Made by a program: the position numbers and the translations under genes. Below are positions 11,733-36,326 of a DNA stretch of 64,000 bases, piece after piece; within the stretch, counting starts at the first letter, position 1, and each line of letters starts with the position of its first letter. This stretch comes from a virus. Below the pieces are notes generated by a model that saw only the letters and a list, made by a program, of their open reading frames with translations, ran no database searches and had not been told where the DNA came from. The stretch spans positions 20,061 to 84,060 of the IMG/VR virus record IMGVR_UViG_3300032284_001133; one strand, 5' to 3'.

Positions 11733-12746
11733 ATGCAATTATTCAAAAAGGTAGCATGCTTTACTGATATACATTTTGGTTTAAAATCTAATAGTGCGGT
11801 TCATAATCAAGACTGCGAAGATTTTGTAGACTGGTTTATTGCCAATGCAAAAGCGCAGAACTGCGAAACTGCTATTTTCTTAGGAGATTGGCACCATAAC
11901 CGAAATAGTATAAATTTAACAACAATGGATTATAGCATTCGTTGTTTAGAAAAATTAGGAGCGGCCTTCAAACAGTTCTTCTGGTTTCCTGGTAATCACG
12001 ATTTGTTTTTTAAAGACAAACGTACTATTCATAGTTCGGCATTTGGTCGACATATTCCGGGAGTAACTGTTGTAGATAGCGTGTGGACAAGCGGTAATGT
12101 TACACTAGTACCCTGGTTAGTAGGTGAGGAATGGAAAGATATTTCCAGTACTAAAAGCAAATATATGTTTGGTCACTTTGAATTACCTTTGTTCTATATG
12201 AACGCTATGGTACAGATGCCGGATACAGGCGAGCTACAATCTGCACATTTTGAACATCAAGAATATGTATTCAGCGGGCATTTTCATAAACGTCAAAATC
12301 AAGGAAAAATCTGGTACATAGGTAATGCGTTCCCTCATAACTTTTCCGATGCAGGTGATGACGAAAGAGGTATGATGGTAATGGAATGGGGCAAAAAACC
12401 AGAATTCATCAAATGGGATCATGCTCCTAAATTTCGTACTCTTAAATTAAGTCAGTTATTAGACGAAGAAGATAGTATTATGAAAGATAAAATGTACCTT
12501 AAGGTGCATATCGATCTGCCTATCAGCTACGAAGAAGCAAATTTAATTAAAGAAGAGTTTGGTAAAAAATACGATATTAGAGAACTTAGTCTAATACAAG
12601 AAAAAGATAATATCGAAACTGTAATCGACGATAGTGTCGAATCTAAATTTGAAAGCGTTGATCAGATTGTCACAGAGCAATTGGTCAATATCGATTCTAA
12701 TTCATACGATCCTAAAGTATTACTGGAAATTTATAACGGTCTATAA
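11733..12746 (+). CDS. gp47: Recombination nuclease subunit (Mre11/SbcD-like)
   Basis: Metallophosphoesterase motifs DIHFG, GDWHH, GNHD, GHFE, SGHFH. Confidence 0.93.
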   Translation: MQLFKKVACFTDIHFGLKSNSAVHNQDCEDFVDWFIANAKAQNCETAIFLGDWHHNRNSINLTTMDYSIRCLEKLGAAFKQFFWFPGNHDLFFKDKRTIHSSAFGRHIPGVTVVDSVWTSGNVTLVPWLVGEEWKDISSTKSKYMFGHFELPLFYMNAMVQMPDTGELQSAHFEHQEYVFSGHFHKRQNQGKIWYIGNAFPHNFSDAGDDERGMMVMEWGKKPEFIKWDHAPKFRTLKLSQLLDEEDSIMKDKMYLKVHIDLPISYEEANLIKEEFGKKYDIRELSLIQEKDNIETVIDDSVESKFESVDQIVTEQLVNIDSNSYDPKVLLEIYNGL

Positions 12747-14527
12747 TGTTTAAAATAAAAAATATAACAGTTAAGAATTTTCTTAGCGTTGGTAATCAAA
12801 CACAGGCTGTCGATTTTGATAAAGAACATCTAACTTTAGTACTAGGTGAAAATTTAGACCTAGGCGGAGATGATAATGGAAGCCGGAACGGTACTGGAAA
12901 AACTACAATCATTAACGCATTGAGTTATGCTTTGTATGGTAACGCACTTACTAACATTCGAAAAGAAAATCTAATTAATAAAACCAACGGTAAAAATATG
13001 TTAGTTACTGTTGAATTTGAAGTAAGCGGTACTAAATTTAAAATTGAAAGAGGTCGCAAACCTAATATATTAAAATTCTTTGTAAACGACCAAGAACAAG
13101 AGCACAAAGACGATGACGCTCAGGGAGATAGCCGCGAAACACAAAAATCAATTGAGCAATTATTAGGTATGAGCCATACTATGTTCAAGCATTTGGTCGC
13201 TTTAAACACCTATTCTGAACCGTTTCTTAGCTTAAAACCTAATGATCAACGAGAAGTTATTGAACAATTACTGGGTATTACGCTATTGAGTGAAAAAGCA
13301 GAAAACCTAAAAACACAGTTAAAAGAATCTAGAGACGCGATTCAAGCTGAAACTGCAAGAATTGAAGCAGTTAAAGCCGCAAACGAGAATGTACAAAAAA
13401 GTATTGATAGTTTAATTACTCGGAGTAAAGCATGGAATACAAAAAAAGATGAAGATCTAGAACGCCTTGCTCGTGCTATCATGCAATTACAAAATGTAGA
13501 TATAGAAGCAGAGCTTGTAGCTCATGCACAACTTAAAAATTGGAACGATAGTAACAATAAACTAAGAGATCTTACTAAACAAAAAGCTACCTTAGATTCC
13601 GCAGTTGGGCAGGCGGAAAAAACGTTGGCCAAATATAAAAAAGAAACAGAACAATTAGAAAACAAAACATGTCCTGCATGTGCTCAAGAACTACATGATC
13701 ACAAACATGAAGAAATGACTGCCGTTGCTGAAAAAAATTATAAAGATGCTTTTGAGTATTTTCAAAAAATGAGTGCTCAACTTAATCAAATTAAAGATGA
13801 AATTATTGGATTAGGAACGCTACCTAAACCTCCAACAACGTTTTATGATTCTGAATCAGAAGCGTTAGGTCATAAAAGCAACCTTGCTAATTTAGAAAGA
13901 CAACTTGAAGATAAAGCCATGGAGCATAATCCATACAATGAACAAGTTGAAGAATTAAGACACACTGCTATACAGGAAATATCTTGGGATATTGTTAATA
14001 CACTAACCAAATTAAAAGAACACCAAGAATTTTTGTATAAACTATTAACCAACAAAGATAGTTTTATTCGTAAAAAGATTATTGATCAAAATTTAACACA
14101 TTTGAATAAGCGGCTAAGCTACTATATCAATAAATTAGGATTACCGCACAAGGTTACTTTCTTAAATGACCTGTCTGTAGAAATTACTCAACTTGGCCAA
14201 GATTTAGATTTTGATAATCTAAGCAGAGGAGAAAGAAACAGATTAATATTAAGTCTAAGTTTTGCATTTCGTGATGTATGGGAAAACTTATATCAAAATA
14301 TTAATCTATTGTTTATTGACGAGCTCATTGATGCTGGAATGGATGCCGCAGGCGTCGAGGCAGGCATTGCTGTTCTAAAGAAGATGGGGCGTGAACGTAA
14401 TAAAAATATATACTTGATAAGCCATAAAGACGAATTAATCGGCCGTGTTAATAATGTACTTAAGGTTATTAAAGAAAACGGTTTTACCAGTTATTCAAAT
14501 GATGTAGACTTTGTTGAAGCCCGATGA
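12746..14527 (+). CDS. gp46: Recombination ATPase subunit (Rad50/SbcC-like)
   Basis: Walker A NGTGKT, zinc hook CPAC within coiled coil, signature LSRGE, Walker B LLFIDE, H-loop ISH. Confidence 0.95.
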   Translation: MFKIKNITVKNFLSVGNQTQAVDFDKEHLTLVLGENLDLGGDDNGSRNGTGKTTIINALSYALYGNALTNIRKENLINKTNGKNMLVTVEFEVSGTKFKIERGRKPNILKFFVNDQEQEHKDDDAQGDSRETQKSIEQLLGMSHTMFKHLVALNTYSEPFLSLKPNDQREVIEQLLGITLLSEKAENLKTQLKESRDAIQAETARIEAVKAANENVQKSIDSLITRSKAWNTKKDEDLERLARAIMQLQNVDIEAELVAHAQLKNWNDSNNKLRDLTKQKATLDSAVGQAEKTLAKYKKETEQLENKTCPACAQELHDHKHEEMTAVAEKNYKDAFEYFQKMSAQLNQIKDEIIGLGTLPKPPTTFYDSESEALGHKSNLANLERQLEDKAMEHNPYNEQVEELRHTAIQEISWDIVNTLTKLKEHQEFLYKLLTNKDSFIRKKIIDQNLTHLNKRLSYYINKLGLPHKVTFLNDLSVEITQLGQDLDFDNLSRGERNRLILSLSFAFRDVWENLYQNINLLFIDELIDAGMDAAGVEAGIAVLKKMGRERNKNIYLISHKDELIGRVNNVLKVIKENGFTSYSNDVDFVEAR

Positions 14528-14844
14528 TAAACAAGTATAAGAATATCTATAGTGAGTTAATTGTAGCCTTAACTGAGCTACACAATGCTCATCTAGATTA
14601 TCTTGAAGGACCAAATATAAGAAAATCTAGAGATCTTAAAAAGAAAATTAAAAGTCTAACACCTAAGTTAAAAAATTTACTCAATATTGTAACAGATGTC
14701 AATAAAGAAGTAACCAAGCGAGACAGAGGAATATATCCAAGAATACCAAATGATCCCAATTTGTTGACTCCGGAATTTCACGAATGGGTAAGTAAAGGAC
14801 TAGGTAGAGTTAATAAATTTACACCAAAAGGAAAAAAGAAATGA
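14524..14844 (+). CDS. Hypothetical basic protein
   Basis: 106 aa ORF coupled to both neighbours by ATGA overlaps. Confidence 0.65.
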   Translation: MINKYKNIYSELIVALTELHNAHLDYLEGPNIRKSRDLKKKIKSLTPKLKNLLNIVTDVNKEVTKRDRGIYPRIPNDPNLLTPEFHEWVSKGLGRVNKFTPKGKKK

Positions 14845-15035
14845 ATTCACAAGCAGAACTATTAGCGGCTTATCAATCCTATATGGAAGAAAACGCCAAA
14901 TTTGAAAAAGGCAACAATGCGGCCGGTACTCGTGCTCGCAAGGCATTGGCAGACATGGGCAAGGCTGTAAAAGGTCGCCGCAATGAAATTACTGAAACTA
15001 AAAATGCCCGTAAAGAAGAAAAGGTCACAAAGTAA
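14841..15035 (+). CDS. Histone H1-like (Hc1-family) small DNA-binding protein
   Basis: AKFEKGNNAAGTRARKALADMGKAVKGRRNEI matches the Hc1-like pattern; SD AAGGA. Confidence 0.75.
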   Translation: MNSQAELLAAYQSYMEENAKFEKGNNAAGTRARKALADMGKAVKGRRNEITETKNARKEEKVTK

Positions 15036-15190
15036 TGTTCCATCTAAGAGAAGAAGGCCAGGTAGTACGTAACGGATTTAACTTTTACAAGTTGTCCGAT
15101 AAAAGTAATGCTGGTTTTATTTTTAGATTAGGAACAAAATTTTTTACACTTAGGTATTCTAAAATAAGGAAGACCTGGATTATTGGATGA
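15035..15190 (+). CDS. Small hypothetical protein (51 aa), missing from the ORF track
   Basis: MFHLREEGQVVRNGFNFYKLSDKSNAGFIFRLGTKFFTLRYSKIRKTWIIG fills the gap exactly, with a TAATG overlap upstream and an ATGA overlap downstream. Confidence 0.7.
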   Translation: MFHLREEGQVVRNGFNFYKLSDKSNAGFIFRLGTKFFTLRYSKIRKTWIIG

Positions 15191-15612
15191 CTTGGACTTT
15201 TCAAGGTACTTTAGTTGAAGAACTCCCCGAAGACTGTGTTGGGTTTGTGTATCTAATAACCAATACAATCACAGGACGCAAGTATATTGGCAAAAAATTG
15301 GCAAAATTTGCAAAAACAACATATAAGACTATAAAATTAAAAAACGGTAACAAGAAAAAGAAGAAAATTAGAGGCAAAATAGAAAGCGACTGGAAAACAT
15401 ATTACGGTTCAAACATAGAATTAAACAAAGACGTAGAAACCTTAGGCACAAATAACTTCACTAGAGAAATATTACATTATTGTAAAAGTAAAGCAGAAAC
15501 ATCTTACATTGAGGCCCGTGAACAATTCGACCGCAAAGTATTAGAATCAGATGACTACTATAACGGACATATACAAGTTCGTGTACATGGCTCACACATT
15601 ATAAAATCTTAG
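15187..15612 (+). CDS. GIY-YIG superfamily nuclease-like protein
   Basis: GFVYLITNTITGRKYIGKK, YYGS, FTREIL, a helix Glu (YIE) and a terminal YYN; catalytic-domain size only (141 aa). Confidence 0.8.
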   Translation: MTWTFQGTLVEELPEDCVGFVYLITNTITGRKYIGKKLAKFAKTTYKTIKLKNGNKKKKKIRGKIESDWKTYYGSNIELNKDVETLGTNNFTREILHYCKSKAETSYIEAREQFDRKVLESDDYYNGHIQVRVHGSHIIKS

Positions 15613-15629
15613 GCATATAATCGGTAATA

Positions 15630-16056
15630 AGCTCGCACCTGCTAATTTCGGGTGCCCAAAAATCTGGACTTAGAGTCGCAGGGATGGAAACCTCTTGCCG
15701 AAAAGAGTACTCAACTACTATCCTTTACAGGACGTCGATCGCAAATTGCCGCGGTTTAGTTGTTTGAAAAGAGTTAAAAAGGCCTAATGAAGGGAGAAAA
15801 ACCCTACGTTTACATTTATGATAGCGTATATTTGTAAACCGCCGTTGAATGAAGACGGAGCTCGTGGTACCGGTCAACCGCCACTGTAATGCTCTAACGC
15901 TGTGTGACTTGTTGAACTCAGATAATGTCATTTTTTCGCCCGGCAGGGCGAAGTGTGACCATAGAATCTAGATAATATCTTAAACACTTCGTGTTTTCAA
16001 TGTTAAAAAAATGCTTTGAGCTGAAAGCGAAAAAGCAAATGAGCGCAAGCTCATTA
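15630..16056 (+). ncRNA. Candidate large structured non-coding RNA (family unknown)
   Basis: Gap with no credible CDS, GC-richer than its flanks, with at least 10 consecutive stems, G-U pairs and a GCAA tetraloop on the + strand, plus a possible pseudoknot (details under findings). Confidence 0.6.
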
Positions 16057-16063
16057 TCAAACA

Positions 16064-16069
16064 TAAATA
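16064..16069 (+). promoter_or_regulatory. Putative late promoter (TAAATA)
   Basis: CATAAATA 28 nt upstream of ATG 16098, with SD GAGGA. Confidence 0.55.
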
Positions 16070-16097
16070 AATTTAATGTTCTTTTGAGGAATGAAAT

Positions 16098-16790
16098 ATG
16101 CGAATTGCTGAAATTATTGTAGAATCTGATTTAAATGAAGGTCCTGCTTGGGATGCTATTAAACAAGGTGCGGGTGCCGTAGGTAGTGCTGTAAAACAAG
16201 GAGCTCAAGCTCTTGGTAAAGGTGCTGTAGCCACAGGTAAAGCCGTAGGCAAGTATGGCCCTGGTGTAATTCAAGGTGCAGGTAATTTAGCTACTAATGT
16301 TGCTCATCAAGCAGGTAACGTTGCTAGTACTTTAGGTACTGGTGTTGGTAGAACAGCAGGTGGATTATTAGGTGGTATTAAGCAAGGATGGGATCAAGCA
16401 AGGGGTAACCCTACAGGTGCTAATCAAGTTCCGTCAGCAGTTCCTCCACAACAACCAAATAATCCAAACATCGCTAATTCACAAGGTGCAAATCAGACAC
16501 AAGGCGGTAATCAGTCTCAAGGTGTTACACAACAAGCACCAAATGCTCAGCAGGCCGCAAGTGGAGCTCAACCAACTCCTCAAAGTATTAAATCTCAAAT
16601 TTCTGCTAAACAAAAACAGATGAAAGCGTTGCAAAAAGAGTTAAATGGTCTGCAAAAAATGTTAACTCCTAAACAACCAGCTACAACTACTCAGCCTAAT
16701 CTTCAGGTTCAACAAGGCGGAATAGCACCTTCGGGAAACCAAGCCACAGGCGAAGGCTTTGAAAGTAAATTTTTAGGAATGACGATTTAA
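16098..16790 (+). CDS. Hypothetical Gly/Ala/Gln-rich protein, possible internal head/ejection protein
   Basis: Good SD and late box. N-terminal MRIAEIIVESDLNEG, 11-residue amphipathic repeats, Q/P-rich linker, short coiled coil. Confidence 0.65.
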   Translation: MRIAEIIVESDLNEGPAWDAIKQGAGAVGSAVKQGAQALGKGAVATGKAVGKYGPGVIQGAGNLATNVAHQAGNVASTLGTGVGRTAGGLLGGIKQGWDQARGNPTGANQVPSAVPPQQPNNPNIANSQGANQTQGGNQSQGVTQQAPNAQQAASGAQPTPQSIKSQISAKQKQMKALQKELNGLQKMLTPKQPATTTQPNLQVQQGGIAPSGNQATGEGFESKFLGMTI

Positions 16791-17950: not shown

Positions 17951-20923
17951 ATGGCAGACGTAACCGGTACAATAGGTAATGAACATGTAGAACTAGATAA
18001 TGCGGCTACCGAAGCCACGTTAAGAGCATTACTGGCGGCTACCAAAGGCCTAAACCAATCTATTATCAAAATGCAACCTAAAACAGGTGGCAAAGGAGGA
18101 ATAGAAGAACTTGATAAAGCATCTGAAAAAACTGGAAAAAGTTTTGCATCTCTGGTAAAATCTGTCGGTCCTGCTGGAGTAGCATTTGATACATTAACCA
18201 AAGCGGCCAGCGGCTTAGGAGGAGTTCTTGGTTCTTTGATGGCAGGCGCTGTTAAGACTGGCGAGAATTTAATAGAGTTAGGTAAGGCGGCCGTTGAAGG
18301 CAACGCTCGAATGAGTGGTGTCTATAAGGCGTTTGAAGATCTTCCTTTTGGTATAGGTAAAGTTGCTAGCCTGTTTACCATGTTAGCAAAAATACAAGAA
18401 GCTAACCTAGATGCTTATAGACAGATGAGCAAGTCTGGTGTTAATTTTTCAGGTAGCCTAACAGATTTAAGATTAGCGGCCAGTGATGCTTATATGACCT
18501 TAGATCAGTTTACAAATTTTGTTGGAAAAAATTCTGAAGCATTAGCTATGATGGGAGAAACTGCTGATAAAGGTGCAAAGAATTTTGTTAGACTAAGTCA
18601 TTCTTTAATTGACAGTAAATTAGGTGATCAATTAATGGCTATGGGTATGACTACTGAAGAAATTAATCAAGGCATGGCCAATTATATTAAAATGTCAGGC
18701 GGTCGAACTGATAAAGAAATGCAAGATACTGCAAAATTATCAAAAGCCGCAGGTGAATATATGATGCAGTTAGATGCTCTTTCACAGATAACAGGTGAAA
18801 GCAGAGCCGCTGAAGAAGAAAAATTAAAACAAGCCACGCAAGACGCACAGTTTGAAGCAATGATGCAAGGGCTAGATGAAGAAGGCAGAAAGAAAGCTAT
18901 GGCGGCTATGGCCAATGCTTTAGCCACAGGTGGCAAAGGAGCCGCCGATGCATTAAAAGCTAAAATGTTAGGAATTCCACCTGTTACAGAAGCCGCTCAA
19001 AATTTTGTTGCATTGTATCCTAAAGCCGCATCTCATATTGAAAGAATGGGAGATGCTGTAACTGATCAAAAGAAAGGCATAGATGATGTTAATCACATAA
19101 ACGGTGAAGCCGCAGTTGCATTAGCAAAAGAAAACAAAGCCTTAGGTAAAGAAACACGAGCCGCAATAACTGCGGCAGGCGGTTCGTTAGCAAGCACTAT
19201 TACTGATGCTACTAAAACTCAAAACATGCTTAACGCTAAAGGAATTAAAACAGCCGACGACTACGATAAGATGATGAAAGACATTGCTAAGAATGAAGAA
19301 GATCGTAGAAAAAGTGAAGCAGAAGCCGCAGCCGCGGCAGAAAAATCTTTAAAAGATTTAGGCAATACTATATTATCTGCTTTAACTCCTGTGTTTAAAG
19401 CTATGGCTCCGTTGGTTACTGATATTGTAAGAAATTTTGCCAGCTGGCTTAAGAGCGTTGACATGGACAAGTTAGGTAAAGATATGGCAGGGCTTGCTAA
19501 AGCTGTTACAGAATACATGTCAAATTTATTCAGTCCAGAAGGTAGACAAAAAATTATTAATGATATCACATACTACATGAAATTAATGTTAATTGAAATT
19601 AAAAAAGCTATCATTCCTTGGTATAGTGAAGCCGATGCTGAAAAAGATAAGAAAAAATTAGATGAACAAAAATCTGCATATGATGCTCAGGCTGAACAAG
19701 TTAGACTTGCTACAGGTGCAGAGCAAAGAAAAACAGCATTAGCTTTAGACGGAGACAAAGCGGCTCAAGAAAGAGTTAAAGCTGAAAACAAAGCATCAGA
19801 AGAACGAATTAAAAATGCAAACGAACAATTAAGAGATGGTAAGATTACTAAAGAACAAGCCGAAGCTATAAGAAAACGCGAACAAGCGGACATTGATAAA
19901 AAACAAGCGGCCTTGGACATGTTAGATGCAAAGACTGGTAAACTTGATGATGCAAAACGTAAAGAATTACAAGCTCAGCAAAAGACACTTGAAGAAGGTG
20001 GAGCTGTCGCAAAAGAAAAGATGGACAAAGTCCGAGAACAAGAAATTAAAGATAAGTCAAAAGAAGGAACACTTACAGGAAAAGCAACTGGCGCTGTAGC
20101 TGGAGGTGTTACAGGAGGTGTTGCTGGTTCAGTCGGTGGAGCAACAGCAGGTGCATGGGTAGGTGGTGCAATAGGAACCTTGCTTGGACCTTTAGGAACT
20201 GTAGCCGGAGCGGCCATAGGTTCAAGTGTTGGATCTTGGCTAGGCGGCGCCGGTGGTGCATTACTCGGTGGTTACATCGGTGAAGAAGTTGGCAATGCTG
20301 TAACAGCGCCATCTGAAAAAGCGGTAAGAAAATCTATGGATGAGAAAAAGGCCTTAGAAAAACGTGCCGCAGGAGGTCCGGTTAAGAAAGGTGAGCCTTA
20401 CTGGGTGGGAGAAAGCGGCCCAGAAATTATGAAACCAGATACCGGAGGACAGATTATTCCTAACAGTATGTTACAGATGCCTGGAACTAAAGACATTAAT
20501 AGCAGTTTTGATGCTATGACTAAAGAGTTAAAATCTCAAAGTATGGGATTACCTCCTATGTCTAAAGACGCATTAAATTTTAGTTCTTTGATGCCCGATG
20601 GATTGTCAACAGCGATGAAGACCGTTGGAGCTAAAACTAGCCAACTAACTGAAGATACAAAAGAAAAAGACAAAAAATCACCAACCTTTGAAGAAATGGT
20701 TGCAGGGTTTGGTAAATCAGTACAAGAAAAAGTACTAGGAGTTACCAATAATGCAACTACTCCTCACATGACAGCAGAGCAAGGAAAAAATTTAGTATCC
20801 GAGCTACAACTGTTAAATAAACAAACAGCAGACATGTTGAAATACATTCGTGATACAGCAGATCATGCTAAAAACACAGTAGATGCAACAAAAGCTCTTA
20901 ACGGGAACATATTCGCTAGATAA
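17951..20923 (+). CDS. Tail tape-measure protein
   Basis: 990 aa, Ala/Lys-rich and helical, with a glycine-zipper segment and RAAGGPVKKGEPYWVGESGPEIMKPDTGGQIIPN, a motif typical of tape-measure C-termini. Confidence 0.8.
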   Translation: MADVTGTIGNEHVELDNAATEATLRALLAATKGLNQSIIKMQPKTGGKGGIEELDKASEKTGKSFASLVKSVGPAGVAFDTLTKAASGLGGVLGSLMAGAVKTGENLIELGKAAVEGNARMSGVYKAFEDLPFGIGKVASLFTMLAKIQEANLDAYRQMSKSGVNFSGSLTDLRLAASDAYMTLDQFTNFVGKNSEALAMMGETADKGAKNFVRLSHSLIDSKLGDQLMAMGMTTEEINQGMANYIKMSGGRTDKEMQDTAKLSKAAGEYMMQLDALSQITGESRAAEEEKLKQATQDAQFEAMMQGLDEEGRKKAMAAMANALATGGKGAADALKAKMLGIPPVTEAAQNFVALYPKAASHIERMGDAVTDQKKGIDDVNHINGEAAVALAKENKALGKETRAAITAAGGSLASTITDATKTQNMLNAKGIKTADDYDKMMKDIAKNEEDRRKSEAEAAAAAEKSLKDLGNTILSALTPVFKAMAPLVTDIVRNFASWLKSVDMDKLGKDMAGLAKAVTEYMSNLFSPEGRQKIINDITYYMKLMLIEIKKAIIPWYSEADAEKDKKKLDEQKSAYDAQAEQVRLATGAEQRKTALALDGDKAAQERVKAENKASEERIKNANEQLRDGKITKEQAEAIRKREQADIDKKQAALDMLDAKTGKLDDAKRKELQAQQKTLEEGGAVAKEKMDKVREQEIKDKSKEGTLTGKATGAVAGGVTGGVAGSVGGATAGAWVGGAIGTLLGPLGTVAGAAIGSSVGSWLGGAGGALLGGYIGEEVGNAVTAPSEKAVRKSMDEKKALEKRAAGGPVKKGEPYWVGESGPEIMKPDTGGQIIPNSMLQMPGTKDINSSFDAMTKELKSQSMGLPPMSKDALNFSSLMPDGLSTAMKTVGAKTSQLTEDTKEKDKKSPTFEEMVAGFGKSVQEKVLGVTNNATTPHMTAEQGKNLVSELQLLNKQTADMLKYIRDTADHAKNTVDATKALNGNIFAR

Positions 20924-20925
20924 TT

Positions 20926-22656
20926 ATGAGTTGGAAAAAATACTTTACACCAGTTAACATATCTGGATCAATGAGTCCTATATCGGGCTCTACAATGCCT
21001 ACAGGTAGTAAATCAAACTACAGCTCATACCTTCCAGATGTTTATTCCGGGCATCCAAACCGACTTGAACGATACAGTCAATACGACACAATGGATACCG
21101 ATAGTGAAGTTAACGCGGCATTAGATATTCTAGCAGAATTTTGCACTCAAACAAACGACGAAAATGCTACACCTTTTGAAATTTTCTTTAAGGAACAAGC
21201 AACTAGTTCAGAAATTAAAATTATTAAAAAATATCTACAGCAGTGGACTAAATTAAACAAATTTACTAATCGAATCTTTAAGATAGTAAGAAATGCATTT
21301 AAATTTGGAGATGCATTTTTTGTTCGAGATCCAGAAACACTAGCATGGATGTATGTAGATCCTAGCAAAGTAGATAAAATTATTGTTAATGAAAGTGATG
21401 GTAAGAAACCAGAACAGTATGTTATTCGAGATTTAAACATTAATTTTCAAAATTTAACAGTAACTCAAATCAACCCAAGTAATCAAAATGCAACTCCGGG
21501 TGGTACAGCTTATGTAACAGGTGGTTCACATCAGCAAGGTATGGTTGGTGCGTATCCTCAATCAGCAGGCGGGAGATTTGGAGTTAATCAAAATCAATGG
21601 GCAATTGACGCTAAACATGTCATTCATATTAGTATGAGCGAAGGTTTAGATAATAACTTTCCTTTTGGAAATAGTCTGTTAGAATCAATTTTTAAAGTCT
21701 ACAAGCAAAAAGAATTGCTTGAAGATGCTATTATCATATATCGTGTACAACGTGCTCCTGAGCGCAGAGTATTCTATATCGACGTAGGCAATATGCCATC
21801 ACATTTAGCAATGAGCTTCGTAGAGCGTGTTAAGAATGAAGTTAATCAACGCCGTATACCATCTGTTACAGGTGGCGGTCAATCGGTTATTGATGCTTCA
21901 TATAACCCATTAAGTATCAACGAAGATTATTTCTTTCCACAGACAGCAGAAGGTAGAGGATCAAAAGTTGAGATTTTACCCGGCGGTACAAACTTAGGTG
22001 AAATTGATGACTTACGCTACTTTACTAATAAATTGTTTAGAGCTTTACGTATTCCTAGCTCTTATCTACCAACTGGTCCGGATGACGGAGGAAGCTCCTT
22101 TAATGATGGACGAGTTGGGACAGCCTATATACAAGAATTGCGATTCAACAAATACTGTGAACGACTACAAAGTTTAATGAATGAAACATTTGATTCTGAA
22201 TTTAAACAATATATGTTTAATAAAGGTATTAACTTTGATCCTAATATCTTTGATTTAAAATTTAATCCTCCGCAAAACTTTGCTTCATATCGTCAAGCAG
22301 AAATGGATACTGCTCGCGTTGGTACATTTGGTACGCTAGTGGCTGTGCCTTTTATGAGCAAACGATTTGCTATGAAACGTTTCTTAGGTATGACTGCTGA
22401 AGAAATTAGTGAAAACGAACAAATGTGGAAAGAAGAAAACGGTCTTTCTGAAAATAAACTACCTGCACTTTCTGAATTACGATCAGCTGGAATTACTTCT
22501 GGTAACATGGAAAGCGATATACAAGATCTATCACAAAGTCAACCCCCTCCTGAAGGCATGGAGGGAGGATTAGATATGGATACCAGTGGGGCTCCGGCCC
22601 CAAGTGCCGCACAAGGCGGTCCTGCAAGCGGTGCTAATCCTGCACCTCCTATGTAA
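20926..22656 (+). CDS. gp20: Portal vertex protein
   Basis: LLEDAIIIYRVQRAPERRVFYIDVGNMP, EDYFFPQTAEGRGSKVEILPGG, YFTNKLFRALRIPSS. Confidence 0.95.
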   Translation: MSWKKYFTPVNISGSMSPISGSTMPTGSKSNYSSYLPDVYSGHPNRLERYSQYDTMDTDSEVNAALDILAEFCTQTNDENATPFEIFFKEQATSSEIKIIKKYLQQWTKLNKFTNRIFKIVRNAFKFGDAFFVRDPETLAWMYVDPSKVDKIIVNESDGKKPEQYVIRDLNINFQNLTVTQINPSNQNATPGGTAYVTGGSHQQGMVGAYPQSAGGRFGVNQNQWAIDAKHVIHISMSEGLDNNFPFGNSLLESIFKVYKQKELLEDAIIIYRVQRAPERRVFYIDVGNMPSHLAMSFVERVKNEVNQRRIPSVTGGGQSVIDASYNPLSINEDYFFPQTAEGRGSKVEILPGGTNLGEIDDLRYFTNKLFRALRIPSSYLPTGPDDGGSSFNDGRVGTAYIQELRFNKYCERLQSLMNETFDSEFKQYMFNKGINFDPNIFDLKFNPPQNFASYRQAEMDTARVGTFGTLVAVPFMSKRFAMKRFLGMTAEEISENEQMWKEENGLSENKLPALSELRSAGITSGNMESDIQDLSQSQPPPEGMEGGLDMDTSGAPAPSAAQGGPASGANPAPPM

Positions 22657-25914: not shown

Positions 25915-27090
25915 ATGTCACAATTATTAAATGAAAGATGGTCAGAGACCAAAGAAGCTCTGCTTGAAGGCCTACAAGGTACCCGTCGTTCTTCTATGCA
26001 AATTTGTTTAGAAAACACACGTAAGTATCTAGCAGAAGCCGCAACAGCAGGTGCAACAAGTTCTGGTAATATCGCAACTTTAAACCGCGTTATTCTTCCA
26101 GTAATTCGTCGTGTTATGCCAACAGTTATCGCTAATGAAATTATTGGCGTTCAACCTATGACAGGTCCAGTTGGACAAATTCACACTCTACGTGTTCGTT
26201 ATGCTGATACTAGCACTGAAGTCGTAGCAGGTGAAGAAGCATTAAGCCCATTCAAGATTGCTCAGGCTTATTCTGGTAACAACAATGCGACAACTCCAAA
26301 AGCTGCCGCAACAAGCCAGCTAGAAGGTCAACCAGGCAACAGAATGAGCATCCAAATCTTGAAAGCTAGCGTTGAAGCTAAGTCTCGTAAACTAAGCGCA
26401 CGTTGGACTTTTGAGGCTGCTCAAGATGCACAAGCACAACAAGGTATTGATATCGAAGCAGAAATCATGGCCGCTTTAGCTCAAGAAATTACAGCTGAAA
26501 TCGACCAAGAAATTCTAGCTTCTCTACGTGCGTTAGCTAGCGTAGAAGCAACTTATGATCAATCATTAGTTTCTGGTACAGCAACATTCGTTGGTGATGA
26601 ACACGCCGCATTGGCAATTCTAATCAACCGTACAGCTAACTTAATTGCTCAACGTACACGTCGTGGTGCGGCTAACTGGGCAGTTATTTCTAACCAAGCA
26701 TTGACAATTCTACAATCTGCTACTACAAGCGCATTTGCTCGTACAACAGAAGGTACATTCGAAGCTCCAACAAACACCAAGTTCGTTGGTACATTGAATG
26801 GCGCTATGCGTGTTTATGTTGACGCATACAAAGTTGACAGCGATGACAACAACCAAGTATTGTTAGGTTATAAGGGTTCTAGCGAGGCTGATGCCGCCGC
26901 ATTCTATTGCCCATATATTCCTCTAATGAGCTCTGGTGTTGTTCTAGACCCAGCAACATTTGAACCAGTAGTTGGTTTCTTAACACGTTACGGTTATGTA
27001 GAACTTTCTAACACAGCAAGTTCTCTAGGTAACGCTGCCGACTACCTAGGTAAGGTTGCTATTACTAGCGCAAACGTAAGTTTCCAATAA
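25915..27090 (+). CDS. gp23: Major capsid protein
   Basis: VIRRVMPTVIANEIIGVQPMTGPVGQIHTLR, AKSRKLSARWTFEAAQD, FYCPYIPL, TRYG. Confidence 0.96.
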   Translation: MSQLLNERWSETKEALLEGLQGTRRSSMQICLENTRKYLAEAATAGATSSGNIATLNRVILPVIRRVMPTVIANEIIGVQPMTGPVGQIHTLRVRYADTSTEVVAGEEALSPFKIAQAYSGNNNATTPKAAATSQLEGQPGNRMSIQILKASVEAKSRKLSARWTFEAAQDAQAQQGIDIEAEIMAALAQEITAEIDQEILASLRALASVEATYDQSLVSGTATFVGDEHAALAILINRTANLIAQRTRRGAANWAVISNQALTILQSATTSAFARTTEGTFEAPTNTKFVGTLNGAMRVYVDAYKVDSDDNNQVLLGYKGSSEADAAAFYCPYIPLMSSGVVLDPATFEPVVGFLTRYGYVELSNTASSLGNAADYLGKVAITSANVSFQ

Positions 27091-27116: not shown

Positions 27117-27142
27117 AAAAAAGCACCTTCGGGTGCTTTTTT
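27117..27142 (+). terminator. Rho-independent terminator after gp23
   Basis: AAAAAAGCACC-TTCG-GGTGCTTTTTT. Confidence 0.9.
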
Positions 27143-27144
27143 GT

Positions 27145-27221
27145 TAAATACAGTGTCTAGATTATTATGCTGTACCCACAGCGTAGGGCCTAGAACGCTC
27201 ATAATTCAAAGGAGAAACAAA
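27145..27221 (+). promoter_or_regulatory. Late promoter box plus structured 5' leader
   Basis: TAAATA 27145-27150; stems ATTATG/CATAAT, GCTGT/ACAGC and AGCGT/ACGCT; SD AAGGAG. Confidence 0.5.
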
Positions 27222-28133
27222 ATGGGACGTCCTCTAAAAAAGAGATATTTTTTAAAAAATAATACACCTTCTGATGTAGTAAAATACGAAGGTGTTACAG
27301 TAAGCATCAATTCTAATGGTACTGGTTACTCAACCGGTGCTGTAGCAAAATTTTCAGCACCACAAGATGCCGCAGGTGTTACAGCAACATTAGGCTTAAC
27401 AATTACTCCAGCAGGTGGAATTACTGCCGCTAGTATTACTAACGTTGGTTCTGGTTATAATGCCGCCCCAACAGTTACAGTAACTCCAGCCGCTACACAA
27501 AATAACACAGCAGTAGCAACTTCTTCAAGTTTCACACTTACAAACGTTTCTGGTGTAAACGGAATTTATCCAGGTATGTTAGTTAGTGGTTGGAGCGGAT
27601 TAACAGCTTTCTCGCATGTTGCTAGTGTAGGTACAAATACAATTACACTTGATAAAGCTATTACTGCTTCAGGTGGCTCTACTGGAACTAGTGTAACATT
27701 TAGCTATTCTGATACAGGTACTGGTGCTACATTTACAGTTGGACTAACACCAACTGAAATTCTTCCAGGTACTATTGCGGCAACAGCATACTTAACAACA
27801 GGTTCAGGTGCTGTAACTTCTGCTATTATTAAACAAGAAGGCTCACGTAGCTATCTAGTTGAAAATACACAAGGCCGTGGCCGTGTTAAATTGGCTACAA
27901 CTGATGCTTTAACAGCAGGTACAATGAAAATTATTGCTACCGACGGAGCAGGTTCTACGTATTATGTAAAAAAATTAACTGCACGTAAAGTTTCTTTAGT
28001 TAGTCGTACAAACACAAGTACAGGAGTAATTACTTTAACCAGTGATGGTACTTATACTGTTGGTACAGCAAAATGGACTGCAGGTGTAGCAACAGGTACA
28101 CAACAAGTTACTATTGGTACAAATACAATTTAA
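27222..28133 (+). CDS. Putative virion structural protein, possibly capsid decoration (start corrected to ATG 27222)
   Basis: SD AAGGAG before MGRPLKKRYF. Thr/Gly-rich beta protein with GTGYS/GSGYN motifs, directly after gp23. Confidence 0.7.
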   Translation: MGRPLKKRYFLKNNTPSDVVKYEGVTVSINSNGTGYSTGAVAKFSAPQDAAGVTATLGLTITPAGGITAASITNVGSGYNAAPTVTVTPAATQNNTAVATSSSFTLTNVSGVNGIYPGMLVSGWSGLTAFSHVASVGTNTITLDKAITASGGSTGTSVTFSYSDTGTGATFTVGLTPTEILPGTIAATAYLTTGSGAVTSAIIKQEGSRSYLVENTQGRGRVKLATTDALTAGTMKIIATDGAGSTYYVKKLTARKVSLVSRTNTSTGVITLTSDGTYTVGTAKWTAGVATGTQQVTIGTNTI

Positions 28134-31208: not shown

Positions 31209-34200
31209 ATGGCCGTAGGTCGTATAACGGGTCCACTCTTAGCGCAGAATCTTAACCGCGACGGAGTTGACTTATCATTTGAAACAGATTTATTATACCT
31301 TGACGTTAATAATGGTCAGATCGGTATTAAAACTGCAAGTCCTCAATACACGCTAGATGTAAACGGCACACTTCATACTTTAAATTTAATTGCAGATAAC
31401 ACCAGCACTATTGGACTAATGGTGTTTTCTAGTACTACGTCTAGTAGTACAGTTTCTACATTACACGGTCCTATATCTATTGCTCCATCTGGGCAAGAAA
31501 ACATCTACTTAGTTGGTAACACATTTGTTACTGGTGATGTACGTGCTACTGGTAACTTTTATGCACGTGGTAACATACAATTAGGTGTTTATACAGCTAC
31601 TGATACTATTTCGTTTGGTGGCGAGGTTAACACAAACATTACACCTTTTATTAGTTCAGGAACATACTATTCTACTGTAACTAATGGTACTACGGTCACT
31701 ACTTTTACAACTAATACTAGTGTATTTTCTGGATTTAATTTTGGTAGTACTACTAGCTACTGGGCTGGAGGTTATTTCCAAGATTTGTATGCTAATACAA
31801 TTAGTCCAGCAGATACCGCAACAAATATTACAATGTTTCCTAACCCTGTCTTAAACAGTAAAGGGTTACCAGGAAATGCATTAACAATCAATGGCGACAT
31901 AAGAGTATACGGCGGAAGTCCTATTGGTACAGCACCGGTGGTTAGTAACGTACTTTATGTGACTATGGACGGAAATGATTCTAACGATGGTCGAGCAGAA
32001 GATGCTAGTCGTGCTTGTCGTACCATCAGCGGTGCAGTAAATAGTCCGTTTTATAAACAAGGAACAGTTATTAAAGTCCGTAGCGGACACTATTACGAAA
32101 ACAATCCTATTCAATTATTACCTTATACATCAGTAATAGGAGATGATTTACGTACAACATTTATCGAACCTTTAAACAAAACAGTTGACTTATTTCATGT
32201 TAATTCAGGTGTTTACATTGCACAAATGCAATTTAGAAATTTACGAAGAGGCCAAGTAACCCGTTACGCCCCAGGCGGAGCAGGTACATATACCACTGGT
32301 GCTTATTGCGTAGCATTTCCTCCTAGTTTAACGAATCCTATAGATTTATTTTACAGTCCATATATTCAAAATTGTACTAATCAATCCGGTCCTTGGCTAC
32401 GTGACGGTACTATGTTTGTACCTAATCAAACAGTTCAAGTTCCTAATGTTGTTGCTACAAGCACATACGTTGCAGGAACTTTAACATTAACAGTTAATGT
32501 TGTACCTGGAACAATTGAGATGATTGAAATAGGTAATACTGTTAACGGTTCTGGAATAGTAACAGATTCATTAAACGAAGTTCCTGTAGTTGTGAGCATA
32601 CAAAATCCAGATTTTGGATTTAATAATGCCGCTATATTGCTAACAAAAAATAAAAATTATCTAATAGCCGAAACTATTGGTTACATTAATTATAATAATA
32701 GCGGATTTACTTACAATCAAGACACATGCAAAAGAGATTTAGGATTAATAATTGATGCTATTATTCATGATTCTGTGTTAGGTGGAAATGAAAAATCTGT
32801 TGAAGCAGGACTTGCATATTGGACTGGAAATAACAATATTATTTCTAATGAAATATCAACAACAACTAATGCTATTTCTTATCTAGGAACCATAGCTCAA
32901 AATATTATAGCAAACACACATCCAGGAACAACTTATCAAAATACTGTTCAACAATATATTGATACTGATTTAACAGGCGGAAGTGTTGCCGGAACAAATA
33001 TCACAGCATGTATTAATACAATTAATGATATAATTCAAAATTGGGCAGGTGTCGAAAATGCCGCTAGTTTATTAACAGCCAATAGAAGTTTTATTCAATC
33101 AGAAGTTGTTGCTTATGTCAATAATACTTTTGGTGCTCCATTTAATTATGATCAAACTAAATGTGCTAGAGATACAGGATTAATTGTTGATAGTATTAGT
33201 TTAGATTTAATGTATCAAGGAACAAGCCAAAGTAATTTTACAGGTTTACAATATTGGAATCACTCAGCAACCACTAATTCTATATTATTAGGCGAACAAA
33301 CTACAACAACCAATGCTATAAACTACATTAAAAATTTAGCATTACAAATTGTAACTAACACACCTATTATAACTCATTATCAAAATACTGTACCTCAAGT
33401 AATAAATTCTTTTACTGGTACTACTACAAACATTACATCTGAGTTTAATTTAATTGTTTCTATTATTAATAGTGGGACACATGGAGTTACTGATTTAATT
33501 GTACCAAACGGAATTACAAGTGTTAATACACTTACGGTTAATACCTATAATTTATTAGAGGCAAACAAAACATTTTTACAAGCAGAGGCTGTAGCTTTTG
33601 TAGAAGCAACTAAAACAGCAGGTTTTCATTATACTACCGCAACATGTTATCGAGATGTTGGTTATATTATTGATAGTGTAGCATTTGATATTCTACACAG
33701 CGGCAATAGACAAGCAATTCAAGCTGGTACCTACTATTATGGTTATAGTACAACTGATAGTGCTATTCCAAATGAGTCTATACAAACGATTGCGGCCTAT
33801 AATTATTTAAAAACTATAGTAGAATATGTAGTCACAGCAACACCTATACAGAATCCATATCAAACATATTCTTTACAAAATTATTCTTATCCTCCAGCTA
33901 CAGGTTTAGAAGTTACAACATTAAAAAATGATATTGATTTAATTATTAGTATTATTAAAAATGGACCAAGTGCTGCCGGACCTAAAACACCTATTGGATT
34001 AACTCCAAGTTCTAATCCTAATGTAGCTAAAGCATATACATTGTTAAATGCTAATAGGTCTTTTATTGCTAGTGAAATTGTTTCATTTATTAATGCAACG
34101 TTCCCTCAATCAGGATTTAAATACAATCAAGATATATGTTACAGAGATATTGGATATATTATAGATGCAGTACAAAATGACATCTTACATAAATCAAACA

Positions 34201-36326
34201 CTAGTACAATATATGCAGGTTTACAGTATTGGAACGGACAATATACTTCTTTAAAGGGAGAAATTCCTCAAACATACTATGCAATAGAATATGCTAAAAA
34301 TCTAGCAGTTGATGTTATTTCAAATACAACAGTTACTCAACTTTTACAAACTGGTACTAATGTTGTCAATCAAGTTATCAACTACGATTTAACAAATGGA
34401 TCAACAGCTACAACATCTTTGCAAACTGCATTTGATATTGTAGCAGGTATTGTTCAATATGGTCCCGAAGCGGCACCATTAACTACTAAATCAAATCTAA
34501 CACAATTTATTGTTACATTAAGCACATCAACTACAGCAGGAGCATCTAACGATACAATTTATTTTGGTGATACATCAGTATATCCGTTGCAAGATGAATT
34601 TATACCTACTGCTTGGTCAACAAGTACCAACGCCGATAGAAGAATTGATCCGCACGGATCGGGCGGAGGTGCTCTTGTAGACGGTAATGCTCCATCGTTA
34701 AGAAGCCCTATTCAATCTTTTGTATTTGATGCGTTTACACAGGTTAATCAAGGTGGTAATGGCATACACATTATTAACAAGGGATATGCTCAGTTAGTTT
34801 CTGTGTTTACAATTTTCTGTGACGTTGCTGTTCATTGTGAAAGCGGTGGTATTTGTTCTATTACAAATAGTAATAGCAACTTTGGAGACTTATGTTTAGT
34901 ATCAGAGGGATTCGGTCCAAGAGAATTCGGAGGAACAATTTACAATCCTCCTATTGAAAACTATCCATTAGGGTTCTATCCATACAATCAAGAAGTGGCT
35001 GTATTTGTTCCTAATCCCCTTAATCGTCCACATATTAGTTTAGTAATGGAGGTAGTTCCTCCTGACACTTATGTTGACTACGATGGCAATATTGTTCCTT
35101 ATGTTAACGAACAAGGTTTTCCTGGATTTCTATCAGGTGCATCAAGCATGGATGTACTAACCACAGGATCATATGTTATTACAACAAATTCTTCAACTGG
35201 TATAGTTTTTGATACAACTGATATTGCAGTTGGACAAAATGTTTATATTGTAGATCAATATGGAAGCCAGTACGATTCACATAATAATCTATATCTAAAT
35301 GCAAATACAGTAGTTACAAAAGTAGAATACCAATCTATCACTTTAAGTAATCCTATTAATGCAGGCGGCGGCCAATCTGGAAATGCAAATTATTTTAATA
35401 TATACACATGCGGCAATGCGTATTATTCTATTTTGTCTAGCGTAGTTGCTCCAGATCCTATCCCTGCAGGTCAAAGCAAAATTACAGGTCAAGTTACTGA
35501 AACTATAGCGGCAATCAATTATGCTAATACCTTGTCTCAGAAAATTATTTCAAATCAAATTGTTACTAGTTTACAAACAGGAACAACAACATCTACTCAA
35601 ATTACAAATAATTCGTTAAATGGGGCACCTGCTGGTTCGTTTATTGCTAACGAATTTAATATTATTAACAGCATCATATTGACGGGTCCAAACAATGCCC
35701 CTGTAGTTACAACAACAGGTACAATCGCTACAAATGCACCCGATGCGGCCAGCTTGTTGTCATTAAACAGATCATTTATTCAAGATGAAGTTATTGCCTA
35801 TGTAAATTCAGCGTACCCTGGGTTTAATTACAATCAAAGAAAATGTAGAAGGGACGTTGGATTACTAATAGATGCAGTAGTAGCAGATTTGAATACAGGT
35901 GGAAATTTCCGTGCTATAGAAGCAGGAGGAACATACTATTCTAAATCAGGAACATATCATATTGTAACTCTTGAAGATAACGTAAGAAATCCTTTATTAT
36001 TTGTCGATGGGGTAACAGTTAACTTCTATCAACGTAGCTACATGAGCGCAAGCGGATATTTGTTTGAGTATGTAGGTGCTGGTACGCAATACGGCGCACT
36101 ACCTCAGGTAGGAAAAGCAGATCCTATACAGAGTAAAGAAGTAATTCAGTTAAATAATGGTAAGGTGTTCTTTACTTCAACGGATCAAAACGGTGATTTC
36201 AGGATCGGCCCAGGGCTCGTTATTAGCCAAGCAACAGGCGTTTTAAGTGGACGAACTTTCCAAAAGAGCTTGTATGCAGAAATGACACCGTTCATTTTAG
36301 CAGTTGAAGCTGGTAGCAGTGAGTAA
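31209..36326 (+). CDS. Giant putative virion protein: pectin-lyase-like beta-helix core with 5 CxRD helical (phycobiliprotein/globin-like) modules
   Basis: VLYVTMDGNDSNDGR...IKVRSGHYYE...VIGDDLR core; CxRD codons at 32727, 33162, 33645, 34137 and 35844. Confidence 0.8.
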   Translation: MAVGRITGPLLAQNLNRDGVDLSFETDLLYLDVNNGQIGIKTASPQYTLDVNGTLHTLNLIADNTSTIGLMVFSSTTSSSTVSTLHGPISIAPSGQENIYLVGNTFVTGDVRATGNFYARGNIQLGVYTATDTISFGGEVNTNITPFISSGTYYSTVTNGTTVTTFTTNTSVFSGFNFGSTTSYWAGGYFQDLYANTISPADTATNITMFPNPVLNSKGLPGNALTINGDIRVYGGSPIGTAPVVSNVLYVTMDGNDSNDGRAEDASRACRTISGAVNSPFYKQGTVIKVRSGHYYENNPIQLLPYTSVIGDDLRTTFIEPLNKTVDLFHVNSGVYIAQMQFRNLRRGQVTRYAPGGAGTYTTGAYCVAFPPSLTNPIDLFYSPYIQNCTNQSGPWLRDGTMFVPNQTVQVPNVVATSTYVAGTLTLTVNVVPGTIEMIEIGNTVNGSGIVTDSLNEVPVVVSIQNPDFGFNNAAILLTKNKNYLIAETIGYINYNNSGFTYNQDTCKRDLGLIIDAIIHDSVLGGNEKSVEAGLAYWTGNNNIISNEISTTTNAISYLGTIAQNIIANTHPGTTYQNTVQQYIDTDLTGGSVAGTNITACINTINDIIQNWAGVENAASLLTANRSFIQSEVVAYVNNTFGAPFNYDQTKCARDTGLIVDSISLDLMYQGTSQSNFTGLQYWNHSATTNSILLGEQTTTTNAINYIKNLALQIVTNTPIITHYQNTVPQVINSFTGTTTNITSEFNLIVSIINSGTHGVTDLIVPNGITSVNTLTVNTYNLLEANKTFLQAEAVAFVEATKTAGFHYTTATCYRDVGYIIDSVAFDILHSGNRQAIQAGTYYYGYSTTDSAIPNESIQTIAAYNYLKTIVEYVVTATPIQNPYQTYSLQNYSYPPATGLEVTTLKNDIDLIISIIKNGPSAAGPKTPIGLTPSSNPNVAKAYTLLNANRSFIASEIVSFINATFPQSGFKYNQDICYRDIGYIIDAVQNDILHKSNTSTIYAGLQYWNGQYTSLKGEIPQTYYAIEYAKNLAVDVISNTTVTQLLQTGTNVVNQVINYDLTNGSTATTSLQTAFDIVAGIVQYGPEAAPLTTKSNLTQFIVTLSTSTTAGASNDTIYFGDTSVYPLQDEFIPTAWSTSTNADRRIDPHGSGGGALVDGNAPSLRSPIQSFVFDAFTQVNQGGNGIHIINKGYAQLVSVFTIFCDVAVHCESGGICSITNSNSNFGDLCLVSEGFGPREFGGTIYNPPIENYPLGFYPYNQEVAVFVPNPLNRPHISLVMEVVPPDTYVDYDGNIVPYVNEQGFPGFLSGASSMDVLTTGSYVITTNSSTGIVFDTTDIAVGQNVYIVDQYGSQYDSHNNLYLNANTVVTKVEYQSITLSNPINAGGGQSGNANYFNIYTCGNAYYSILSSVVAPDPIPAGQSKITGQVTETIAAINYANTLSQKIISNQIVTSLQTGTTTSTQITNNSLNGAPAGSFIANEFNIINSIILTGPNNAPVVTTTGTIATNAPDAASLLSLNRSFIQDEVIAYVNSAYPGFNYNQRKCRRDVGLLIDAVVADLNTGGNFRAIEAGGTYYSKSGTYHIVTLEDNVRNPLLFVDGVTVNFYQRSYMSASGYLFEYVGAGTQYGALPQVGKADPIQSKEVIQLNNGKVFFTSTDQNGDFRIGPGLVISQATGVLSGRTFQKSLYAEMTPFILAVEAGSSE

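Follow-up and report, generated by a model that had tools for sequence, protein, structure and literature searches.

The segment at positions 15630-16056 (+ strand) is the full-length form of the Polynucleobacter-1 RNA, a structured and conserved molecule of about 430 nt. It lies within a 64,000-nt stretch of viral DNA (the window), positions 20,061 to 84,060 of the IMG/VR virus record IMGVR_UViG_3300032284_001133, which is 84,060 nt long and has an estimated completeness of 23%. The 5′ third of the RNA has been known as an orphan motif since 2010; what is new here is its 3′ two-thirds, which are uncatalogued and equally conserved. At least 137 distinct phage sequences in IMG/VR conserve the RNA. 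One short word occurs in it twice; within a phage the two copies stay identical, and from phage to phage the word differs. We lean toward the reading that this is a self-folding noncoding RNA with two pseudoknots, acting in trans as a scaffold that presents its twin words to a common reader.

RF01718 domain and uncatalogued extension

The RNA sits in a gap of 485 nt (15613-16097) that, according to the ORF lists, is the window's longest stretch lacking an ORF of at least 100 aa. The runners-up among ORF-free stretches measure 321 and 300 nt, and the earlier note was thus correct in calling this the longest non-coding gap of the window. Using cmscan, we identified 15630-15765 (+) as Rfam family RF01718 (Polynucleobacter-1), with a score of 111.7 bits (E = 2e-23) spanning model positions 1-141 of 141, as compared with the curated gathering score of 37 bits. 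This 5′ domain of 136 nt has the identical four-helix layout, comprising P1, P2, P3 and P4, the last a three-way junction with P4a and P4b. Its consensus helices are kept through compensatory changes: 28 of 33 pairs changed on both sides, and 69-98% of cells were paired. The Rfam model ends at 15765, whereas the phage RNA continues for about 290 nt (15766..16056, + strand; P5-P8 and P10-P13) that include pseudoknots and the twin words. For this extension, cmscan returned only chance-level Rfam rows at E up to 10. The RNA had previously been described as unassigned and without a family match, which now holds for the 3′ two-thirds alone. Conservation begins near 15630 and fades past about 16060.

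The motif is listed in a table of Weinberg et al. (2010, Genome Biol 11:R31; PMC2864571) as a probable RNA with the habitat "Burkholderiales, fresh water/estuary", which agrees with a freshwater phage. A literature search on Polynucleobacter-1 and RF01718 returned nothing beyond this paper. For 16 years, the motif has been catalogued solely as a 141-nt orphan.

Several pattern searches of IMG/VR show how broadly the two parts are distributed. A pattern built from invariant letters of the 3′ part matched 55 stretches, and one combining the P8 core with AAGTGTGAC matched at least 120 contigs. A pattern from the 5′ domain alone matched 6 stretches, five of which belonged to RF01718 and to a more distant group, and all five had the 3′ extension. 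RF01718 was likewise found upstream at all five viral loci where a relative of the downstream protein is encoded, and the whole intergenic region of these loci aligns with the window. Among the 12 most divergent-looking loci, eight passed the RF01718 threshold. Because four of these 12 (L110, L163, L128 and L170) have a 5′ domain below that threshold and yet retain AAGTGTGAC, the P8 core and the twin words, the extension is at least as widespread as the catalogued part. Outside IMG/VR, the extension pattern matched 0 stretches in 185,579 prokaryote genomes, and the sole match of the 5′-domain pattern in these genomes, in a Bacillota MAG, did not contain RF01718 and was rejected as chance. A blastn search of the RNA against 50,697 GenBank phage records gave no match; this is an abundant RNA of giant T4-like lake phages for which those records hold no matching cultured model.

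The host of the RNA is an uncultured freshwater lineage of T4-like giant phages. The closest GenBank relatives of the T4-type portal gene (20926-22656) have about 50% identity and belong to giant phages such as Atu_ph07, Phosso and PA5oct. All homologues of the RNA come from one phage lineage with a common gene order, and synteny therefore says little about function. The structural region of the window also contains three very large ORFs on the + strand, at 31209-36326 (1705 aa), 36745-45954 (3069 aa) and 52410-60704 (2764 aa).

Fold, covariation and strand

We aligned the 137 distinct sequences with MAFFT, which is not structure-aware (alignment A3), and assembled a model of 94 pairs from the stems of the earlier note, RNAalifold and mutual information. 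With its two pseudoknots included, the model had 84.5% paired cells across the 137 sequences, versus 34-43% when partners were slid by 1-3 columns. Compensatory changes on both sides were found at 79 of the 94 pairs. Doubly changed cells numbered 1715; sliding gave 314-526 and shuffling 563 ± 32, and none of 500 shuffles matched any of the observed measures. The + strand folded with z = −3.03 relative to shuffles, none of 100 being as good, and the − strand with z = −1.60, 2 of 100 being as good. There were 1073 G-U cells and 367 A-C cells, an excess that argues for selection on a + strand RNA. The earlier note had proposed a structured RNA, had read its strand from G-U mismatches, and had named conservation and covariation among relatives and folding against shuffles as checks; the RNA withstood all of these, and nearly every stem listed at that time is backed by compensatory changes in the 137 sequences.

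Within the 5′ domain, compensatory changes occurred at 6 of 7 pairs of P1 (GCACCTG/CGGGTGC, 15635-55). They also occurred in P2 (CTG-GACT/AGTC-CAG, 15664-81), P3 (CTCT/AGAG, 15692-707) and the three-way junction of P4 (CAACTA/TAGTTG with two inner hairpins, 15712-62). The same was true in the extension for P5 (AGGG/CCCT, 15792-804), P6 (GTTTACA/TGTAAAC, 15808-39), the nested P8 (AGC-GTGG/CCAC-GCT, 15858-94) and P10 (TTCGCCC/GGGCGAA, 15935-52), all on the + strand, and the RNA finishes with a covarying 3′ hairpin, P13 (AATGAGC/GCTCATT, 16038-55). Our model adds P11 (15984-94) and the two hairpins formed by P12 and its inner part (16013-36), which were absent from the earlier list of stems. Compensatory changes occur across helices 11-27 of the model, those of the extension. 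The inner CGG/CCG of P8 is invariant in the relatives and so carries no covariation signal either way.

Pseudoknot 1 joins the P6 loop at 15821-26 to 15898-903 (span 15821..15903, + strand). This pairing had been anticipated from the single sequence and is now borne out, with 6 of 6 pairs changed on both sides, 90.6% of cells paired, and recovery by mutual information as well. Pseudoknot 2 is new and joins the loop of P7 (15843-57) at 15846-48 to the P8 loop at 15874-76 (span 15846..15876, + strand). All three of its pairs showed compensatory changes (e.g., UA 69 and CG 68), 98.5% of cells were paired, and mutual information detected it as well. A CCGTT/GACGG stem suggested for this region did not hold up, as it has only 3 invariant pairs and its 3′ letters belong to pseudoknot 2 and outer P8. 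The description of the region as almost fully paired was also overstated, since supported pairs cover about 188 of roughly 427 nt.

Four helices (P5, P10, P11 and P13) had only 63-75% paired cells in the MAFFT alignment, which we attribute to misalignment around indels. Among the 137 sequences, 31 columns were invariant, and dozens of invariant letters are unpaired. Three loci (L030, L044 and L059) have an extra hairpin of about 20-60 nt between the outer P8 strands (alignment A2, columns 323-382), and this shows where the fold tolerates expansion.

In its general build, the RNA resembles GOLLD, ROOL, OLE and raiA, which are large ornate noncoding RNAs of bacteria and phages, exceeding 400 nt and containing many helices and pseudoknots. 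The likeness extends to size class, helices, pseudoknots, invariant unpaired letters and an association with phages or mobile elements, but the phage RNA gave no match to their Rfam models at E up to 10. We looked for a self-association palindrome in the phage RNA, and what was found is not conserved across variants of the twin words. To our knowledge, few RNAs exceed 400 nt and combine several pseudoknots with dozens of unpaired letters that never vary, and every known class of them has proved to act as a ribozyme, as the core of a ribonucleoprotein or as a particle that assembles itself.

Twin words

The twin words belong to two units with invariant flanks on the + strand of the extension. 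Unit 1 (15904..15927) consists of GTGAC, a spacer, NNA-CTC and a 7-letter box at 15920-26, and unit 2 (15953..15976) of GTGTGAC, a spacer, NNA-TCT and a 7-letter box at 15970-76. At least 12 different words were present among the 137 sequences, the commonest being AGATAAT. Words were only 7-13 nt long, and a few of them dominated. Apart from two of the 137 sequences, the longest word common to both units was the box. In 120 of 120 sequences anchored by the CTC/TCT triplets, the two boxes were the same, with positions 1, 2, 5 and 7 agreeing throughout; at 5 and 6 letters before the box, the units agreed in 88% and 70%. The distance from box to box ranged from 47 to 60 nt, with one case of 90. 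For every variable box letter, the best mutual-information partner was its twin, and mutual information revealed no Watson-Crick partner column for any of these letters. The A/G and A/T states of the box combine freely, implying that twin identity is no simple clade effect. The word reaches 13 letters in L170, a locus with no GIY-YIG match upstream of its RNA.

Six candidates for the reader of the twin words were tested, and none held. RNAalifold on 44 sequences paired C-Y-G in the P3 loop of the RF01718 domain with C-R-G in unit 1 (UA 23, CG 16, CA 4, UG 1), but this link dissolved in 137 sequences, where loops containing C accompany A-words and the loop stays the same in sequences with the words GCATAAT and GAATAAT. 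In 61 of 136 sequences, a G-U-tolerant complement of the 7-mer is located about 110 nt before the anchor, but it turned out to be an invariant GTTGTTT, which stays fixed while the word changes. Pairing of unit 1 with unit 2, as drawn by alifold, is broken at 2 of 6 pairs by C/A at position 2, without compensation. The palindrome in unit 2, considered as a dimerisation site, is lost in GC and GA words. A third copy at 17990-18001, inside a 990-aa gene, coincides with a site that encodes a conserved peptide, and this site had the phage's own word in only 4 of 28 loci.

The sixth candidate, copies or complements of the word elsewhere in the genome, gave no pattern. The 7-mer complement occurred 43 times in G000 with no recognizable arrangement. 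Extra 9-mers in 148 loci numbered 25 versus 10 expected, with no common position. Counts of word copies and complements in five records of 200-355 kb equaled those of the reversed-pattern control. A recurring 11-mer on the opposite strand was found in unrelated contexts (about 40% identity).

We also considered other readings of the units. The GTGAC...GATAAT arrangement was rejected as a general promoter, given that its two matches in the window are the two units themselves. A mini-ORF or bypass reading was rejected because the spacing has no triplet phase (48/45/43). In the T4 gene 60 bypass cassette, two short words that match lie about 50 nt from each other on either side of a hairpin, and a homing-endonuclease gene adjoins. 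Our locus shares with it the paired short words about 50 nt apart, a stable hairpin, a mobile-type nuclease gene and a T4-like phage. However, the T4 words are codons in one frame, whereas no conserved ORF runs into or out of the units described here, and substitutions in the phage RNA follow base pairing rather than codons.

The pattern of the twin words is of the kind seen where recognition goes by base pairing. Strict identity between two short words that vary among phages provides a testable handle on the partner of the RNA.

Gene order and proposed role

The block upstream of the RNA contains SbcCD-like gp47/gp46 genes (11733-14527), a 106-aa ORF, an Hc1-like gene (14841-15035, + strand), a 51-aa ORF and a stand-alone GIY-YIG nuclease gene of the SegE type (15187..15612, + strand, 141 aa), which overlaps the end of the preceding ORF by 4 nt. 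The Hc1-like gene, two genes upstream of the RNA, encodes a histone H1-type protein of 64 aa (PF07432, E = 6.6e-12) that is kept in many relatives and is unusual for a phage. The GIY-YIG protein matched PF19835 at 116.8 bits (cut-off 25, E = 8.9e-34) over residues 3-129 and profile positions 1-123 of 123, and from its sequence it is predicted to be a bare catalytic domain of the SegE type with no further domain. PF19835 was also assigned to the neighbours in L003, L004 and L006.

We evaluated synteny in the 135 distinct RNAs preceded by 600 nt or more of sequence. Of these, 133 had a GIY-YIG homologue upstream, at a distance of up to 150 nt in 124 and of 167-1044 nt in nine, and two had none. 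Free-standing mobile homing endonucleases are recognized by patchy presence; this gene occupied the same place in 133 of 135 with 57-84% identity and behaves like a core gene of the lineage. In L004 (1069-1908) and L002/L060, an additional ORF of about 279 aa that belongs to no Pfam family lies between the GIY-YIG gene and the RNA, indicating that the two can be parted without loss of the RNA. Homologues of the GIY-YIG protein are labelled "NAD synthetase" in RefSeq phages (e.g., NC_047838, NC_041997 and NC_028945), which looks like a propagated misannotation.

On the downstream side, a low-complexity gene (16098..16790, + strand, 230 aa) is a variable neighbour outside the RNA, and baseplate-like genes on the − strand come after it. 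A Pfam profile search assigned its product to no family, and relatives of this product were found in only 5 viral loci. The word ATAAATA (16063..16069, + strand), which we take to be the T4-type late promoter, is situated between the RNA and this gene. It is depleted about fourfold in the window, with 10 copies (2700, 3175, 10666, 16063, 17891, 17918, 31107, 47360, 50967 and 60719) versus 37 ± 6 expected, and for 8 of the 10, an ORF on the same strand begins 8-100 nt farther downstream. Across the 85 loci with enough DNA on this side, a convergent baseplate-like gene followed the RNA within less than 700 nt in 18, at 700-1500 nt in 42, farther away in 24, and in one not at all. In the distant group, convergent genes come directly after the RNA, with no + strand gene. 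The late-promoter word and the varying or convergent downstream genes argue against a 5′-leader role, and the same facts favor its production at the end of the gp47-gp46-GIY-YIG block. A search of sequencing runs for the stretch yielded six, all of DNA and none recorded as RNA; four contain part of it, and only one all of it.

Under the reading we favor, the RNA would form the 3′ end of an early/middle gp47-gp46 operon and be transcribed together with the GIY-YIG gene or immediately after it. Such co-transcription is suggested by the 17 nt between the stop codon and the RF01718 start, with no conserved promoter between them. The RNA would end at the P13 hairpin, ahead of the late promoter of the next gene, and would act in trans as a stable scaffold instead of a leader. 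On the + strand, the consensus scan calls no terminator at P13, which weighs against this reading; in relatives, P13 is followed by UUUA or UUUU. Its knotted core would hold out both words for one reader, which would read by identity. A nucleic acid or a factor programmed by sequence is a more probable reader than a loosely specific protein, and the reader would not be encoded beside the RNA.

One alternative, raised as a possibility in the earlier note, is that the RNA is a targeting or activating partner of the minimal GIY-YIG nuclease, with the twin words supplying recognition. Its attraction lies in the same-strand synteny, in a protein that the catalytic-domain profile covers end to end with nothing else, and in words that are short, variable and set in an invariant scaffold. 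The synteny part of that proposal stood, although adjacency is weak evidence for partnership because the RNA-bearing loci share ancestry and gene order. The rest fared poorly. GIY-YIG homologues with 41-55% identity occur in 476 GenBank phage records, and blastn found the RNA in none of the 50,697 searched. In all five cultured phages inspected (Melnitz, BUCT-ZZ01, Bellamy, ACP17 and phiN3), what comes after the homologue is ORFs, tRNAs or a convergent gene, and none of the five has a gap there that could accommodate the RNA. At two loci the RNA occurs without any GIY-YIG match, and at nine other DNA intervenes. The shortness of the words and the dominance of a few of them also weigh against recognition, as do the chance-level word counts in the five long records. 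Top mutual information between GIY-YIG residues and the word was 0.17-0.49, compared to 0.19-0.64 for the gp46 control (74 loci), a test that has no bearing on a pure guide model. We therefore consider the partnership unlikely. Still far less probable is its most specific form, wherein the knotted RNA programs a GIY-YIG dimer, one word per protomer, to cut nucleic acid bearing the matching word. If true, an RNA-programmed GIY-YIG would represent an RNA-directed nuclease of a class not known before, used in giant-phage competition. A literature search on phage GIY-YIG proteins and structured noncoding RNA found nothing related.

The partnership had been proposed by analogy with HEARO/OMEGA systems. 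HEARO/OMEGA RNAs, which work with IscB, IsrB or TnpB, and IS110 bridge RNAs belong to RNA-programmed DNA enzymes. Like them, the phage RNA is a structured RNA beside a gene for a small DNA-cutting enzyme and contains variable words in an invariant scaffold. The neighbouring enzyme, however, is a GIY-YIG rather than a RuvC/HNH nuclease or DEDD recombinase, and its relatives work without such an RNA. The phage RNA is 3′ of the gene, in a phage core region lacking transposon ends. Its words are identical to each other instead of matching two DNAs, and no target for them was found in the loci or the five records of 200-355 kb. No HEARO row appeared in cmscan at E up to 10, and the neighbours are SegE-type GIY-YIG, Hc1-like and SbcCD-like genes rather than IscB, IsrB or TnpB. 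No group I intron row appeared at E up to 10 either; there is no room for a 5′ intron half, and the flanking genes are unrelated.

Somewhat more doubtful than a nuclease partner is a 3′-end module of the early/middle operon, a folded barrier that would halt 3′ exonucleases or transcription where the late structural genes, some of them convergent, begin, and that would have no function in trans. The position of the RNA is compatible with this, directly behind the gp47-gp46-GIY-YIG block and ahead of either the late-promoter word or convergent genes. The P13 hairpin at its end is terminator-like on the − strand, the only strand on which the consensus scan found this. However, a 430-nt fold that includes two pseudoknots and keeps dozens of unpaired letters invariant is far more than a barrier needs, and identity of the two words is left unexplained.

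We regard as highly improbable that the RNA is a cis-regulatory leader or riboswitch of the downstream gene, a reading that gene order in the relatives already contradicts. In its favor, Table 1 of PMC2864571 gives the motif a "y" under cis-regulatory and a "?" under switch, and a + strand gene begins 42 nt past P13 in the window. That tentative label clashes with the phage gene order and is probably wrong. We found no single conserved gene family downstream: the gene after the RNA is not conserved, and convergent genes take its place in the divergent group. In the window, a late-promoter-like word intervenes, and between the RF01718 domain and the start codon there are about 330 nt of additional conserved structure.

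A DNA-level element (replication origin, recombination site or nuclease target) whose words are protein-binding or cleavage sites is equally improbable: identical direct repeats about 50 bp apart do flank a GC-rich hairpin and recombination (gp46/47-like) and nuclease genes adjoin, but compensatory changes run through about 430 nt, the unit arrangement recurs nowhere else in the window, and a purely DNA-level role is unlikely because the tolerance of G-U, three times as frequent as A-C, is one-stranded.

The window contains a second Rfam motif, the RF02980 freshwater-2 RNA, at 27147-27224 (+), with a score of 56.8 bits compared to a gathering score of 49.9. It is located in the short gap after the gene at 25915-27090 and overlaps the listed TTG start of the ORF at 27141-28133.
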